From NCBI GenBank assembly GCA_040905385.1, contig JBBDRP010000002.1, forward strand, positions 523,526 through 587,525: DNA of 64,000 nt. The letters are read 5' to 3'. Position numbers and translations under genes: made by a program. The notes beneath the pieces were generated by a model, which worked only from the letters and a program-made list of their open reading frames with translations, was not told the origin of the DNA and made no database searches. The stretch's first letter is position 1. Each line of letters starts with the position of its first letter. The DNA comes from Minisyncoccota bacterium (GTDB taxonomy: Bacteria; Patescibacteriota; Minisyncoccia; Phycocordibacterales; SW-6-46-9). Of this stretch, positions 27,479-32,513 are shown in pieces.

Positions 27479-28165
27479 ATGCGATTGTCCTTCATTGACA
27501 AACAAGCAGCCAACGAAATTATCGCTGCCGTGCTGCAGGAGATAAAAACCGATGAGAAGGCAGCGGCACTCTCCTTTTCCCGGCTTCATACTGACCTTTC
27601 AGCACAAGCTCGAAACCTGTCAGAGAAAATTCGCTCTATTCGGCCACATCATTACGGACTCAACCGCAAAGCAGTACCACCACAAAAGGCAGGTAATCTC
27701 GTCGTGGTACGCAATCAATACTATGCCACAGCAGATGGGTGGCACTCTATTCCGCCACGACTGGTGCCGCGGCACACGTTTCGCAGCTTTCAGGCCATGA
27801 ATCACACGCTAAAGAAGGATATCGGTCACGAGCTTGTGATTCAGTCGGGCTACCGCTCGCCAGCCTATCAGTTGTTTATATTTCTTTTCCAGCTCAAGGA
27901 AAAAGACTGGGATGTCGAAAAGACCCTACAGACGGTAACCTTGCCTGGTTACAGCGAGCATGCCGCAACCGGCAGTCAGGCGTTGGATTTACGCGCATCA
28001 AAATTTTACGGACCGCATGATATGTACGAATTTACCCGCGTGCCCTCATACGGTTGGCTGCTAGATCATGCTGGTGAGTTTGGTTTCTCCTTAAGTTATC
28101 CAGAGGGTAACAATACTGGGACTGATTTTGAACCGTGGCATTGGCGACATCAATCTACAGCATAA
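27479..28165 (+). CDS. D-Ala-D-Ala carboxypeptidase, VanY/peptidase M15B family
   Basis: SGYRSPAYQ, LPGYSEHAATGSQALDL and EPWHWRH zinc-ligand motifs. Confidence 0.75.
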   Translation: MRLSFIDKQAANEIIAAVLQEIKTDEKAAALSFSRLHTDLSAQARNLSEKIRSIRPHHYGLNRKAVPPQKAGNLVVVRNQYYATADGWHSIPPRLVPRHTFRSFQAMNHTLKKDIGHELVIQSGYRSPAYQLFIFLFQLKEKDWDVEKTLQTVTLPGYSEHAATGSQALDLRASKFYGPHDMYEFTRVPSYGWLLDHAGEFGFSLSYPEGNNTGTDFEPWHWRHQSTA

Positions 28166-28249
28166 TTTAATTTTCTTTCATACTTGCGCACTTGAGTGCT
28201 TTGACTAAGCTAATAATTTGAGAGATGAGTATATCAACCTAAGAAAGCC

Positions 28250-28287
28250 GCTTAGTATCCCGCAAGTCGGGACACTAAGCTTTTTTT
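28250..28287 (+). terminator. Intrinsic terminator GCTTAGTATCCCG-CAAGT-CGGGACACTAAGC followed by T7
   Basis: Read directly; lies 85 nt after the VanY stop codon. Confidence 0.7.
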
Positions 28288-28512
28288 CACCTTGAGGCGT
28301 TGGATTAATCAATAGTTCAATATAATCCATTCTATCCTTAGCGCTGGCTCACTGAAATCTTCGCACTACCGTGTCGAAGATTTTCAGCTCGCATCAAGTC
28401 TTCGTTTTTCTACGACGCTTTTGTTTCTTGGACACAATTATCTGCTCCACAGGAACCATACAAACTTCGCTGGGCGAGATTTCTTAAAAAGGGTGGGCTC
28501 GTTTTTATAGTA

Positions 28513-28545
28513 AAACCCTCACAGAATTTAATTCTGTGAGGGTTT
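28513..28545 (-). terminator. Perfect 15-bp hairpin AAACCCTCACAGAAT-TTAA-ATTCTGTGAGGGTTT, U-tract on the minus strand
   Basis: Probable terminator of the minus-strand small gene 28665-28868. Confidence 0.5.
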
Positions 28546-28664
28546 GTGTAGTTATCTTAAAAATATTGAAGCGAGGGGAACGGTTCTTGTTCTCCGCTTG
28601 TCTCGAATGAGAGAGCCAGAATTACCCGTTTAGAAGCTTTTGCTCAGCCTGTTGCTACAAATCA

Positions 28665-28868
28665 TCAAAACTTTGAAGTGAACACTTCGTTCATTAATTC
28701 ACGTGTTGTGATTTCGGCAAATTCCATTGCCTCTTTAGTTTCGATACCAATTTTTTTAGCCTGATCACCAATCTCTTCTGGCAAACTAGAGCTAATGTTG
28801 ATACCTTGGTCTCTAAATCGCTGTTTTAATAGCATAAGCGCGATTTCTTGCTGTCTTTGTTCGGTCAT
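28665..28868 (-). CDS. Hypothetical small protein (67 aa)
   Basis: ORF only; possibly a small DNA-binding or antitoxin-like fold. Not established. Confidence 0.35.
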   Translation of the reverse strand: MTEQRQQEIALMLLKQRFRDQGINISSSLPEEIGDQAKKIGIETKEAMEFAEITTRELMNEVFTSKF

Positions 28869-28882
28869 AATGACCTCTTTTT

Positions 28883-28947
28883 TTATTATGGAATTATATA
28901 GATGTAAGCAGAGCTTTTCTGCCTACATCTATATAATTCCATAATTA
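28883..28947. terminator. ~30-bp near-perfect stem TTATTATGGAATTATATAGATGTAAGCAGA-GCTT-TCTGCCTACATCTATATAATTCCATAATTA
   Basis: Read directly (2 mismatches); lies just downstream of the pheT stop codon. Confidence 0.6.
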
Positions 28948-29019
28948 CTTCACTATGTCAATCCCTCTTTTCTAAGGCTGCAATTTAAATTGCAGTTGCT
29001 AACTTATGAACCCATCTTG

Positions 29020-31356
29020 TTATCGTACCGAAAAGCCATCATTACCCTCAAGCCTCGTCTCAATTGACTGCATGTGTTCATTCACCTCCGCGTCACTCAG
29101 CGTGCGCTCATCGGACTGAAAGACCAACTTAAACGCATAAGAAATCTGGTTGTCTTTTTCGTACGTATCAAAAAGATTTGCAGCTACTAAAAGTTCACCA
29201 GCGACATCCTGAATAATGCTCTTTACATCACCCGGTTCGGCTCCGTCCGGTGTCCAGACAGCCACATCCCGAAGAACGTACGGATACATTGACGGCGTTC
29301 GGAATGATACTGGAGAAAACAGCGACGTATCATCTGTTACCGGCGATTCCGATGACATCTCCTGATTTTCTGGCAGTAGCGCTGTTGCAATCCCGTTGCT
29401 TACCTCCGGCTCAAAATCATAGTCAAACTTTCCGGAAAGCATACTGAAAACCTCAGTAATATCCTCGTCACCAGTATCACTATCGCTACCAACTGCCAAG
29501 GAGAAAACTTCTCGGTCATTTAGAAACACCTTGCCGATCTCGAACACCTGCAGATTCTCTGCAGCAAGAACCGGTTTATGTGTTTCGTTTGTATCTAAAA
29601 CGGTCGTAATATTATCTCGTAGTGTACTGCGCAGATACGCCTTGTCCTCTGCTACCGGATTTTTTAGCCTTACTTTCCCATCCTCAACCAGCGAGTAGGT
29701 CTTGACTTCGGTGTAGCCGAGCGAAACTAATGAGTCGCGAATATGACCACGAACATTTTCATCTACTGCTGGTGACACCTTATCTGGCATCACCGGCTGA
29801 ATCTTGTCGTACCCGTACACCCGCCCGACCTCCTCAATGAGATCCTGGCTATAGCGAAGGTCAGTGCGCCAATCTGGAATAGTGGCCACGATCCGTTCAT
29901 CGGCGAGCTCAGGAACGCGTCCATAGCCGACAGTATTTTCAAACTGCTTTGCTTCCTGCAGCGGCTCAATTACAACACCGCCATCGCCGTCATGACTATG
30001 GCGAGAGGCGTGCGCAATTTCTCCATTTCCAAGGTAAATTCCACAGTGATCAACACCTTCAGGAATATCTGTGCCAGCCATATACTCTTTTGTTTGATAG
30101 TAGATTTCACCACCCTCATCTTTCCCTGTATTAGCAAAAATAAGATCACCGGCCATAAGGTCTGATTCGCTTAGGCGTTCAGTATAAGCAAACTGATCGA
30201 CACTGATTCGTGGCAGCGCAATACCGGCCTGTACAAACATCCAGCTAACAAATGAAGAGCAGTCAAACGCCTTCGGAGCATCAGCCGTAACACTCGCACC
30301 ATATTTATACGGTGTGCCGACCTGATCAGGAGCCAACAAAGAAATATGCTGGGTCGGATTAACCACTTCTGTTTCGCAACCAAGCTGGTTCAGGATATCA
30401 ATAGTTTCCGTGGTTGAGATATCTGTACCTAAAAGCGCATTAACATGCTGGGTAGTTACTCCTACTTTATACGGTGCCTGTGGACGCGGATACACGTCAA
30501 GCACATCATCAGCAATCGTTGCATCAGCTACTTCCTGAATGAGCTGACTGAAGCGTTCCATTGCCCGCCGAGAGCGTGCTGCTGGTACATCATTCTCGAA
30601 CCGTTTCGAGGCATCGGTGCGGAGATTCAGCTTCTGTGATGTCTTGCGAATTGTGGCTGGATCAAACGAGCAAACACTAAGCATTACCTTAGTCGTGCTC
30701 TCATCAATACCACTTACCTGCCCACCCTTGATACCAGCAATATCCAGAGCCTTCTGGGAATCCGCAATGACCGGCATTCCTGGCTCGAGTGTGAAGACAT
30801 CACCATCCAGCGTTGTGATCTCTTCACCAGCCTCCGCCGAGCGGATCATAATTTCCATCCTGTCTTCACCGGCCAGCTTATCGTAATCAAAGGCATGCAC
30901 CGGCTGTCCTAGCTCGAAGGTCAGATAGTTAGTAATGTCTACCACATTATTTATACTTTTCTGCCCTAGTACCTTCAATTGATCACGAAGCCAGTCGGGT
31001 GATGGGCCAACCTCAACATCGAATGCGAGACGCTTCAATGCCCGACGGCAGGAACTGGTCTCAATCGCCAGCGAGAGGGCATCGGCTGATTTTAGCTGTT
31101 TGTCTACCTGAACTTTCGGACCAATCGGCGTAAACGTAAGATCTGCAAGCACTGCCAACTCGCGCGCAACACCCTCATGGCAAAGTGAGTCACTGGCCCG
31201 GTTTGGTAGTACATCTATATCAAAAACTGTGTCATTATCGATCGCGCGAAATCCTTCCACCTCATACGCACCATGTGTCAGTACATCCGCGACCTCTGCC
31301 GGAGTAGGTAAATCTTCCTTAATATAATCTTGTAGCCACCTGTAAGATATTTTCAT
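29020..31356 (-). CDS. pheT: Phenylalanyl-tRNA synthetase beta subunit with an inserted NlpC/P60 peptidase domain; lacks the B2 tRNA-binding domain
   Basis: N-terminus MKISYRWLQDYI; B3/B4, B5 (DLIEEVGRVYGYDKI), catalytic-like and FDX-ACB domains are all present. Residues ~333-488 read YKYGASVTADAPKAFDCSSFVSWMFVQAGIALPRISVDQ...GDLIFANTG...DHCGIYLGNGEIAHAS, an NlpC/P60 fold with its Cys-His-His triad. Confidence 0.9.
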   Translation of the reverse strand: MKISYRWLQDYIKEDLPTPAEVADVLTHGAYEVEGFRAIDNDTVFDIDVLPNRASDSLCHEGVARELAVLADLTFTPIGPKVQVDKQLKSADALSLAIETSSCRRALKRLAFDVEVGPSPDWLRDQLKVLGQKSINNVVDITNYLTFELGQPVHAFDYDKLAGEDRMEIMIRSAEAGEEITTLDGDVFTLEPGMPVIADSQKALDIAGIKGGQVSGIDESTTKVMLSVCSFDPATIRKTSQKLNLRTDASKRFENDVPAARSRRAMERFSQLIQEVADATIADDVLDVYPRPQAPYKVGVTTQHVNALLGTDISTTETIDILNQLGCETEVVNPTQHISLLAPDQVGTPYKYGASVTADAPKAFDCSSFVSWMFVQAGIALPRISVDQFAYTERLSESDLMAGDLIFANTGKDEGGEIYYQTKEYMAGTDIPEGVDHCGIYLGNGEIAHASRHSHDGDGGVVIEPLQEAKQFENTVGYGRVPELADERIVATIPDWRTDLRYSQDLIEEVGRVYGYDKIQPVMPDKVSPAVDENVRGHIRDSLVSLGYTEVKTYSLVEDGKVRLKNPVAEDKAYLRSTLRDNITTVLDTNETHKPVLAAENLQVFEIGKVFLNDREVFSLAVGSDSDTGDEDITEVFSMLSGKFDYDFEPEVSNGIATALLPENQEMSSESPVTDDTSLFSPVSFRTPSMYPYVLRDVAVWTPDGAEPGDVKSIIQDVAGELLVAANLFDTYEKDNQISYAFKLVFQSDERTLSDAEVNEHMQSIETRLEGNDGFSVR

Positions 31357-31487: not shown

Positions 31488-32243
31488 TCAAAATTGTTGT
31501 ATTACACGCAAATCACCGTTATAGAAAAGCCTAACATCCGGTACGCCGTGCTTCAGCATCAACAGCCGATCAATACCGACGCCAAAGGCAAAGCCTTGAA
31601 AATCTCGCGGATCAATCCCAACATTTTCCAGCACATTTGGATGCACCATTCCGGCACCCATCACCTCTATCCAGGGATTGTCCTCCATGTCACCCGAGGA
31701 TTCCTTGCGACGCATATCAACCTCCACCCCCGGCTCAACGAACGGAAAGTAGCTCGGTCGGAAACGTACTTCCGTCTCCCCGGTAAAAAAAGCTGAGAAA
31801 AAATGCTCTAGCACACCTTTCAGGTGGGCCAGCGTAATATCAGTATCGACCAGCAAACCCTCCAGCTGATAAAACTGGGTTTCGTGAGTGGCATCAGTAG
31901 CTTCGTAACGAAATACTTTTCCAGGAGCAATGATACGAATCGGTGGTTGATTATCTTCCATGTGCCGAATCTGCACGTTTGAGGTATGCGTCCGTAGCAG
32001 ATCACCAAGCTGATTCTCCTCGAGCCAGAACGTGTCCCAGAGATCACGAGCCGGATGATCAGCCGGAATGTTCAAGGCGTCAAAGTTGTAATGCTCGGTC
32101 TCAACATGCGGACCCTCGGCCAAAGAAAAACCAAGTTCACGAAAGATGGATTCGATCTCCTTAATCGCCAGCGAGATTGGATGGTAGTGCCCAACTTTTT
32201 CATTTTTATTACTTTTCGACATCATAGATATAGTACCAAACAT
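31488..32243 (-). CDS. pheS: Phenylalanyl-tRNA synthetase alpha subunit (core only)
   Basis: Class II motifs FRPSYFPFVEPGVEVD and GFAFGVGIDRLLML; directly upstream of pheT. Confidence 0.9.
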   Translation of the reverse strand: MFGTISMMSKSNKNEKVGHYHPISLAIKEIESIFRELGFSLAEGPHVETEHYNFDALNIPADHPARDLWDTFWLEENQLGDLLRTHTSNVQIRHMEDNQPPIRIIAPGKVFRYEATDATHETQFYQLEGLLVDTDITLAHLKGVLEHFFSAFFTGETEVRFRPSYFPFVEPGVEVDMRRKESSGDMEDNPWIEVMGAGMVHPNVLENVGIDPRDFQGFAFGVGIDRLLMLKHGVPDVRLFYNGDLRVIQQF

Positions 32244-32415: not shown

Positions 32416-32440
32416 TCGCCGTTCATTCATTGTATTCATG

Positions 32441-32513
32441 AGCCGGCGAGAGGATTCGAACCCCCGACCTGCCCCTTACAAGGGGGCTGCTCTACCAACT
32501 GAGCTACACCGGC
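32441..32513 (-). tRNA. tRNA-Thr (anticodon TGT)
   Basis: Reverse complement folds as GCCGGTG...anticodon stem GCCCC-CTTGTAA-GGGGC, T-arm GGGGG-TTCGAAT-CCTCT, acceptor CGCCGGC. Confidence 0.75.

Follow-up and report, generated by a model that had tools for sequence, protein, structure and literature searches.

The pheT gene in a 64,000-nucleotide stretch of a Minisyncoccota bacterium genome (contig JBBDRP010000002.1, positions 523,526 to 587,525; hereafter the window) encodes a beta subunit of phenylalanyl-tRNA synthetase (PheRS) in which the tip of the beta2-beta3 hairpin of domain B5 holds an entire peptidase domain in place of a turn of about four residues. The nested domain is of the NlpC/P60 (C40) type of cysteine peptidases. 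The insert is real, ancient and widespread in one bacterial radiation, and it is almost certainly functional. We give roughly an even chance to the reading that it is an active cytoplasmic gamma-D-glutamyl amidase of peptidoglycan-derived peptides, with PheT as its carrier.

The gene is one open reading frame (ORF) of 778 aa (29020..31356, on the minus strand like all features of pheST given below), which by ORF, Pfam and Foldseek is a PheRS beta chain that lacks B2 and carries a nested NlpC/P60 domain. Pfam matched B5 in the native product as two separate stretches. In an AlphaFold2 (AF2) model built from 115 homologs, with a mean predicted local distance difference test score (pLDDT) of 92.2 and a predicted TM-score (pTM) of 0.71, B5 runs through a strand (297-300), two helices (302-309 and 315-324) and a second strand (328-332), is interrupted by the insert and resumes with a strand (488-492) and a helix (503-514). 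The N-terminal half of B5 (residues 293-332, 30361..30480; strand, two helices, strand) and its C-terminal half (residues 489-520, 29797..29892; strand 3 and the DLIEEVGRVYGY helix) are both defined by AF2 and Pfam, and enclose residues 333-488 (29893..30360). HMMER alignments gave the same site: query residues 338 and 492 aligned to the adjacent residues 444 and 445 of the Thermus thermophilus beta chain, and query residues 329 and 490 to residues 437 and 445 of the Escherichia coli chain. When residues 335-487 were removed in silico, the two stretches became a single B5 match covering profile positions 3-67 of 67 at 72.7 bits. The beta2-beta3 turn of B5 measured 4 residues in 56 of 59 insert-less PheT (5, 11 and 13 in the others), while the matching segment in 20 insert-bearing PheT measured 137-169 residues. 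PheRS beta has two helix-turn-helix domains described as "DNA-binding-like", and B5 is one of them (PMC3275996). In the initial annotation the insert took the place of a linker of about 30 residues that joins the editing region to B5; the alignments, the in-silico excision and the structure prediction that had been suggested as a check, which sets the insert between strands 328-332 and 488-492, move it inside the B5 hairpin. The extent that had been assigned to it, residues 333-488 at 29893-30360, agrees with the translation.

The identity of the nested domain is well supported. The insert alone matched NLPC_P60 (PF00877) at 3.6e-19 and 69.1 bits against a cut-off of 23, and within the whole PheT the match covered residues 347-454 (3.7e-17, 62.6 bits). 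In the same profile search CHAP did not match the insert and LRAT reached only E = 0.24, which is not significant; an affinity to either family was accordingly dropped. The closest sequence matches in the PDB were all peptidoglycan DL-endopeptidases, the best being Clostridioides difficile Acd24020 (7cfl, 4.8e-14), and the others including T. thermophilus 4xcm, Staphylococcus aureus 4fdy, CwlO, MepS, RipA and LytE. A Foldseek search with the whole PheT model aligned the insert, modelled as a papain-like alpha+beta fold with pLDDT above 90, to the NlpC/P60 catalytic domains 7cfl and 7v6s with a target TM-score of 0.84. The catalytic residues are Cys366 in the motif FDCSS (30259..30261) and His437 (30046..30048), with His449 (30010..30012) as the third member of the triad; together with the conserved NlpC/P60 tyrosine Tyr350 (30307..30309) and Arg383, each of their codons was verified against the window. 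The initial annotation was right to read the region as an NlpC/P60 domain with the catalytic cysteine and both histidines, and also to expect it in the cytoplasm, as the N-terminus of PheT, read by eye, has no evident signal peptide.

The active site can be compared with that of YkfC, where in a product complex the S1 site for gamma-D-Glu is made up of Tyr226, Trp228, Asp237, Ser239 and a small residue at 257, with Arg255 in its hydrogen-bond network (PMC2954226). The equivalents in the insert are Tyr350, Tyr352, Asp365, Ser367, Ser385 and Arg383, and the predicted gamma-D-Glu signature is thus kept except for tyrosine in the place of Trp228. YkfC also clamps the free N-terminal L-Ala of its substrate by Asp256, together with a tyrosine of its SH3b domain (PMC2954226). 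The Asp256 position is Ile384 here and Ile, Met or Val in relatives, and there is no SH3b domain; because both are missing, the insert is not a member of the YkfC subfamily. A further peculiarity is a family-specific beta-hairpin just before the catalytic His (residues 409-436, 30049..30132), seen as a gap in the PDB alignments and without counterpart in canonical NlpC/P60; AF2 gives its strands as 419-421 and 430-435, and its Gly428 and Gly434 are more than 90% conserved.

Conservation was counted over 118 full-length homologs. Tyr350 and Asp404 were present in 118/118, Cys366 and His437 each in 117/118, and Asp365, Arg383, Asp387 and Gln388 in 97-98%. His449 was found in 104/118 (88%), the remainder having Y, F, S, D or Q, and a single homolog (P0070) had lost all three triad residues. 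The mean frequency of the top residue was 0.60 for the insert and 0.51-0.76 for the other domains of PheT; the insert is thus as conserved as the rest of the protein, and its catalysis is probably under selection.

The same architecture is common among relatives. All of the best 120 homologs shared the five Pfam domains at 41-67% identity and mostly 760-830 aa, and their named sources were Paceibacterota, Pacebacteria, Parcubacteria or Patescibacteria, with the exception of P0084, which NCBI labels candidate division KSB1. A filter-free HMMER scan of 1.84 billion representatives at 50% identity, made with the insert alone, returned 77 matches at or below 1e-30 and 373 at or below 1e-10; about 90 of the best 150 representatives were proteins of 730-840 aa matched at residues ~330-500. 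In GTDB species genomes, a sample whose locus counts are lower bounds, at least 21 insert-bearing loci were found, all in Patescibacteria records; the listed loci come from Paceibacterota, Campbell-, Zambryski- and Kaiserbacteria, Minisyncoccia and some TPA bins labelled Saccharibacteria. Insert-less Patescibacteria comprised Moranii-, Gribaldo-, Nomura- and Peregrinibacteria records as well as loci L062, L073 and L080. We propose a single ancient insertion into the B5 hairpin that was inherited by a large clade of Patescibacteria of the Minisyncoccota/Paceibacteria type. A survey of orthologs, as the initial annotation had suggested, finds the insertion throughout the closest homologs. The annotation's lineage hint of Saccharibacteria did not hold: the NCBI entry for the exact protein, titled 'PheT-related protein', is labelled Candidatus Paceibacterota, a current synonym of the phylum Minisyncoccota.

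Two observations on the family may be added. In the 963-aa PheT of 'Patescibacteria group bacterium UBA7522' (L020:4362-7250), encoded next to a full-length PheS, the NlpC/P60 insert occurs together with B2 (tRNA_bind) and a full catalytic-like module, and this PheT seems to represent the insert-bearing family in its least reduced state. Several long proteins (among them P0121, of 1183 aa, P0213, P0252 and P0242) matched the insert in 5-11 separate stretches and may be built from tandem NlpC/P60 domains; P0121 had the top overall E-value of the scan (8e-67) because several of its stretches match.

The remainder of PheT is that of a bacterial beta chain. A B1 region (residues 1-40, 31237..31356, from alignment to T. 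thermophilus beta) directly abuts the B3/4 editing domain (PF03483, residues 103-277, 30526..31050, 3e-56); after B5 come the catalytic-like module B6/B7, whose Pfam-matched part (PF17759, 2e-11) covers residues 532-614 (29515..29763), and the FDX-ACB (B8) anticodon-binding domain (PF03147, residues 689-777, 29026..29292, 9.1e-18). PheRS beta chains ranked first when the whole model was searched with Foldseek (1pys_B, 6.8e-49), and the NCBIfam pheT model TIGR00472 scored 393.2 bits, just below its equivalog cut-off of 402.65, a shortfall that fits a missing B2 and a split B5. As the initial annotation stated, this single pheT directly follows pheS (31488..32243; 251 aa, catalytic core only by ORF and Pfam, without the N-terminal coiled coil), from which it is separated by 131 bp, and no frameshift splits it.

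The most telling evidence on the autonomy of the domain comes from genes in which it has left PheT. Among the matches to the insert were 21 sequences of stand-alone B5+NlpC/P60 proteins of 199-233 aa, which start at the first B5 strand (M..YK[IV]G[IF]S), include the family-specific hairpin and end after B5 strand 3 and a short helix. Tyr350, Cys366, Ser367 and His437 were kept in 21/21, and Asp365, Arg383 and His449 in 86-90% (His449 in 90%), while the residues that are invariant in the B5 of PheT (L309, G310, D505, E508, E509, G511, R512 and G515) were lost; in some members the S1 residues are altered too, FDCSS reading FSCSS and IPR reading MPS. One such protein was modelled as a single compact unit (pLDDT 91.6, pTM 0.87) with 7cfl_B as its best Foldseek match (target TM-score 0.91, root-mean-square deviation 1.6 A). 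Genes of this kind lie at L081:8001-8669, L084:8001-8681, L086:8001-8600, L087:4258-4938, L089:3900-4565 and L090:846-1505. Their context is the synteny of the window, rpsB - tsf - ... - pheS - [pheT slot] - ... - gyrB, and in 5 of 7 contexts the gene occupies the pheT slot beside a gene for a 376-389-aa protein with PF01409 and PF03147, whose stop overlaps the start of the stand-alone gene in 4 of the 5; in L086 it follows a DNA polymerase III delta'/AAA gene instead.

The PF01409+PF03147 protein is the catalytic core of PheS fused to B8, which is the architecture of the mitochondrial single-chain PheRS. Its best PDB sequence match was human mitochondrial PheRS (1.5e-62, 215 bits; bacterial PheS 1.7e-34), and it scored 235.7 bits with the NCBIfam model pheS_mito (cut-off 258) and 230.6 bits with that of 'PheS-related mystery ligase SrmL' (cut-off 300); NCBI mostly names it 'hypothetical protein'. 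The best 120 clusters all had PF01409+PF03147 at 71-86% identity, and genes were located at L081:6862-8001, L084:6856-8004, L087:3113-4261, L089:2761-3903, L091:4001-5137 and L092:3807-4940. Many Patescibacteria encode such a single-chain PheRS. The lineages with the stand-alone gene have lost B1, B3/4 and B6/7 and carry B8 on the alpha chain, and of PheT only B5+NlpC/P60 persists there as a gene; since it was kept after the rest of PheT was lost, the module has a function of its own. This persistence is a natural deletion experiment and shows that selection maintains the module in its own right. Of three further contexts sampled, none had a B5+NlpC/P60 gene beside the single-chain PheRS, as far as that locus is concerned, and on the strength of these loci the module is dispensable for charging. 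In a neighbour-joining tree, which is crude and hence weak evidence, the stand-alone forms fell into at least 6 groups nested among fused forms; this fits their having been derived from PheT, possibly more than once. That they were instead the donor of the insert is unlikely, given this nesting and the B5 halves that they carry.

The mechanism that we favour may be put as follows. The pheT product would be a working bacterial PheRS beta lacking B2, into whose B5 beta2-beta3 hairpin a papain-like cysteine amidase of about 155 residues would have been inserted once, long ago. The nested domain would be catalytically active in the cytoplasm with the gamma-D-glutamyl specificity of DL-endopeptidases, hydrolysing soluble peptidoglycan-derived peptides or precursors so that the amino acids of stem peptides are recycled or scavenged, and would act independently of aminoacylation. 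The split B5 would be a structural cradle and PheT a constitutively expressed carrier; more speculatively, the B5 halves might play the role that SH3b has beside the cleft of YkfC-type enzymes. We infer the activity, the substrate, the tRNA independence and the cytoplasmic site of such a gamma-D-glutamyl amidase from the Cys/His/His site, the S1 signature, the DL-endopeptidase relatives, the lack of an evident secretion signal, the autonomy from PheT and the linkage to small peptidases described below. A precedent exists in Chlamydia, a genome-reduced bacterium whose NlpC/P60 protein YkfC hydrolyses peptidoglycan-derived peptides in recycling (PMC9928106). The organism of the window makes peptidoglycan, as judged from the YceG/MltG encoded there.

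Several points weigh against this reading. The putative substrate is deduced from residue conservation alone, and one of the residues concerned, Trp228 of YkfC, is a tyrosine here; the ~28-residue hairpin on the N-terminal side of the catalytic His may mean that the leaving-group side differs from that of known enzymes; and 12% of homologs have a residue other than His at the third triad position. There is no functional reason that links muropeptide hydrolysis to PheRS. The start/stop overlap by which the stand-alone gene is linked to PheRS could point to a PheRS-related role, and within this sample the editing-site change from Glu to Ser, treated below, occurs only in insert-bearing PheT. The initial annotation had listed a peptidoglycan amidase, a new editing module and an inert insertion as the options, a set that was correct; the evidence argues strongly against the inert insertion and mildly favours the amidase.

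The main rival, possible but in our view unlikely, is a domain that works as a cysteine amidase or esterase on another gamma-glutamyl or acyl amide substrate, not on a peptidoglycan peptide. Candidates are poly-gamma-glutamate-like, glutathione-like or N-acyl amino acid compounds, or a protein or peptide processed together with a linked C39-like peptidase. A remodelled cleft is suggested by the hairpin before His437 and the Trp-to-Tyr replacement, the S1 residues are replaced in some stand-alone members (FSCSS, MPS), and the module is in genetic linkage with another papain-like peptidase. This peptidase is encoded by a small gene of the Peptidase_C39_2 family (6e-17; 156-214 aa, papain-like) directly 3' of the module in relatives, with the motifs VPYYSQ, RxCG..CLKM, FH.V, YHDP and WRK.AIF, and with no evident signal peptide in the aligned N-termini as read by eye. 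Among the listed loci it followed the module in 10/21 insert-bearing loci (just after fused pheT in L001, L002, L003, L008, L009, L012, L013, L014, L016 and L017), in 4/7 stand-alone contexts (L081:8666-9172, L086:8593-9159, L089:4923-5489 and L090:1560-2030) and in 0/59 insert-less loci, a contrast that is suggestive and not a statistic, as the loci are phylogenetically related. The C39_2-like neighbour had no NCBIfam, PADLOC or PDB sequence match; an anti-phage defence role was rejected, as PADLOC matched neither the insert nor the stand-alone protein nor this neighbour. The gene is absent from the window locus. Against a different substrate stand the S1 signature itself (Tyr, Asp, Ser, Arg and the small residue), present in 86-100% of fused and stand-alone forms, and the nearest neighbours in sequence and structure, which are all DL-endopeptidases.

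A role on substrates linked to tRNA(Phe) has to be weighed against the state of the editing site. In T. thermophilus PheRS, Glu-beta334 recognises the para-OH of Tyr and, together with His-beta261, anchors Tyr-tRNA(Phe) (PMC3275996). The window PheT has the histidine (His154), but by alignment and codon check Ser227 (30676..30678) at the position of the Glu-beta334 of T. thermophilus and E. coli, and Cys229 (30670-30672), which co-varies with it. His154, Gly208, Gly211 and Thr247 of the editing site were invariant in the 118 homologs, and Ala249 was found in 101/118, otherwise Ser. The pair Ser227 and Cys229 occurred in 89/118 of these close homologs and the pair Glu/Ala in 29/118. As Glu was present in 59/59 insert-less and in 15/20 more distant insert-bearing PheT, the Glu-to-Ser change is one that, on this comparison of sequences, arose inside the insert-bearing clade; Tyr editing may be altered or lost in the clade of the window.

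The nested domain could thus be imagined as a tethered post-transfer editing domain or deacylase, or as an enzyme of aminoacyl transfer through a Cys thioester, which would act in trans in the reduced lineages; we consider this rather improbable. It would account for the location of the module in a synthetase subunit, for the free-standing paralogs, which known editing domains of aminoacyl-tRNA synthetases (aaRS) also have, for the translational coupling of the stand-alone gene to the PheRS gene and for the absence of the module outside the PheRS operon wherever a PheRS gene is visible. Papain-fold enzymes hydrolyse esters too, and the change of the editing Glu to Ser with Ala to Cys is frequent in the close insert-bearing PheT and found in 0/59 insert-less ones. 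On the other side, the insert is acidic, with a mean net charge of -5.2 and a value of -14 in the window, for which reason an RNA-binding surface was also rejected; the S1 residues fit recognition of gamma-D-Glu and not of an aromatic aminoacyl group; the editing Glu is kept together with the insert in 29 of the 118 close and 15 of the 20 distant PheT; the surface residues specific to the B5 of PheT decay in the stand-alone forms; and the module was not at the locus in the 3/3 sampled single-chain PheRS loci. The fuller version, in which B5+NlpC/P60 would be a PheRS-coupled thiol enzyme, of a new quality-control or aminoacyl-transfer type, acting on an ester- or amide-linked aminoacyl- or peptidyl-tRNA(Phe) substrate, would have partly replaced the editing site and later acted in trans beside the single-chain PheRS, seems to us more improbable still.

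There is very little chance that the insert is a non-catalytic structural or binding module that compensates for lost tRNA-binding elements, senses peptidoglycan fragments or is merely tolerated. Non-catalytic NlpC/P60 domains such as RipD exist, and P0070 shows that the whole triad can be lost, but Cys366 and His437 were retained in 117/118 fused and 21/21 stand-alone forms, and where PheT has been dismantled the domain lives on in a gene of its own. The tRNA-binding elements in question are B2 and the coiled coil of PheS. As the initial annotation noted, B2 is absent from the window PheT: PF01588 (tRNA_bind) gave no match to the product in Pfam, no B2-sized segment appeared in the alignment, and query residue 41 aligned to residue 152 of T. 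thermophilus beta. The N-terminal coiled coil of PheS contacts tRNA in T. thermophilus PheRS, and the short PheS without it was found in nearly all insert-bearing loci, which lends this explanation some appeal, as well as in some insert-less ones. The losses are nevertheless not tied to the insert, which is found with B2 and a full-length PheS in L020, while L062, L071 and L080 lack B2, the coiled coil and the insert; a replacement of B2 or of the coiled coil by the insert was therefore rejected.

An assembly chimera, by which a fragment of a wall hydrolase was joined into pheT, has the oddity of the architecture and nothing else in its favour and is next to impossible: the insertion point is the same in more than 130 independently assembled sequences from many samples at 41-67% identity, with the B5 halves in frame, and the GC content (0.45-0.53) shows no compositional break across the insert. 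Conservation across assemblies refutes the chimeric joint that the initial annotation had considered.

The gene order rpsB-tsf-pheS-pheT-gyrB is common to the window and its relatives. Between gyrB and pheT, on the opposite strand, the window carries a gene (27479-28165, plus strand) for a 228-aa VanY/VanXY-like D-Ala-D-Ala peptidase (PF02557, 2.1e-21), which by eye has no evident N-terminal hydrophobic segment or signal peptide and may be another cytoplasmic hydrolase of peptidoglycan peptides. The region 3' of pheT (28166-29019, about 850 bp) is of lower GC (0.36-0.42), holds no ORF above 67 aa and gave no Rfam match; its 67-aa ORF (28665-28868, minus strand), without family match, is at the position where relatives have the C39_2-like gene. 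A tRNA-Thr(TGT) gene (32440-32513, minus strand) is found between tsf and pheS, upstream of pheST and on the same strand.

Full-text searches, outside whose reach most subscription journals lie, returned no paper on a PheT-NlpC/P60 fusion and none on a bacterial single-chain PheRS. The initial annotation knew of no synthetase subunit with such a domain, which agrees with this literature; the architecture is not a one-off, however, and hundreds of copies are in the databases. The architecture is thus already public, mis-named or under-named, and combines two known families, PheT and NlpC/P60, rather than forming a new kind of system. NCBI titles for insert-bearing PheT are often 'C40 family peptidase' or 'phenylalanine--tRNA ligase beta subunit-related protein', and pipeline names such as 'C40 family peptidase', 'PheT-related' and 'hypothetical' can make genomes seem to lack pheT. 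To our knowledge, almost all enzymatic additions to aaRS serve in editing. It is a different kind of addition when an essential synthetase subunit carries a cysteine peptidase of the cell-wall type whose active site has stayed intact across a large radiation of ultra-small bacteria. Patescibacteria are unable to make most building blocks; if the recycling of peptidoglycan peptides is the true function, the insert would show how they handle wall-derived amino acids, by an activity welded onto a housekeeping protein. If tRNA-linked substrates should prove true, the insert would stand for a class of quality control new to translation. Across the related loci, moreover, bacterial PheRS is seen to be taken apart step by step until a single chain of the mitochondrial type is left, a finding relevant to the manner, and perhaps the place, of origin of the mitochondrial enzyme.

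Compared with the bacterial (alpha-beta)2 PheRS beta chains of T. thermophilus (1PYS/2IY5) and E. coli (3PCO), the window protein has B1, B3/4, B5, the catalytic-like module and FDX-ACB in the same order and is encoded after pheS. It differs in lacking B2 (EMAP/OB), in the 156-residue peptidase at residues ~440-442 of T. thermophilus and ~438-444 of E. coli beta, in having Ser for the Tyr-recognising Glu334 and in a partner PheS without coiled coil. With the C40 DL-endopeptidases (C. difficile Acd24020, 7CFL; E. coli MepS/Spr, 7V6S/2K1G; T. thermophilus 4XCM; Bacillus subtilis CwlO and LytE) the insert shares the fold, the Cys-His-His site, the Tyr and the Asp-Cys-Ser and Pro-Arg-x-Ser motifs for gamma-D-Glu. 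Unlike these, the window protein lacks targeting domains of the LysM, SH3b or coiled-coil kind, and its N-terminus, read by eye, shows no evident signal peptide; the insert is nested in a cytoplasmic synthetase, with the extra hairpin of ~28 residues and Tyr for the S1/S2 Trp. YkfC or dipeptidyl-peptidase VI (Bacillus cereus 3H41; Chlamydia trachomatis YkfC) is an NlpC/P60 enzyme that acts on free peptidoglycan peptides inside the cell (PMC2954226, PMC9928106), but the insert lacks both its Asp256 (Ile384) and the SH3b tyrosine, and if anything it is the B5 halves that stand in the place of SH3b. The editing domains of aaRS and their free-standing paralogs (PheRS B3/4, CtdA-type B3/4, AlaX, YbaK/ProX) resemble the insert in being hydrolases that occur both within a synthetase and as a small stand-alone protein encoded beside the synthetase gene. 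The insert, in contrast, has an unrelated papain-like thiol fold and chemistry, an acidic surface and a gamma-D-Glu-type active site; only B3/4 of the window PheT belongs to a known editing fold, and the insert is homologous to none of them.

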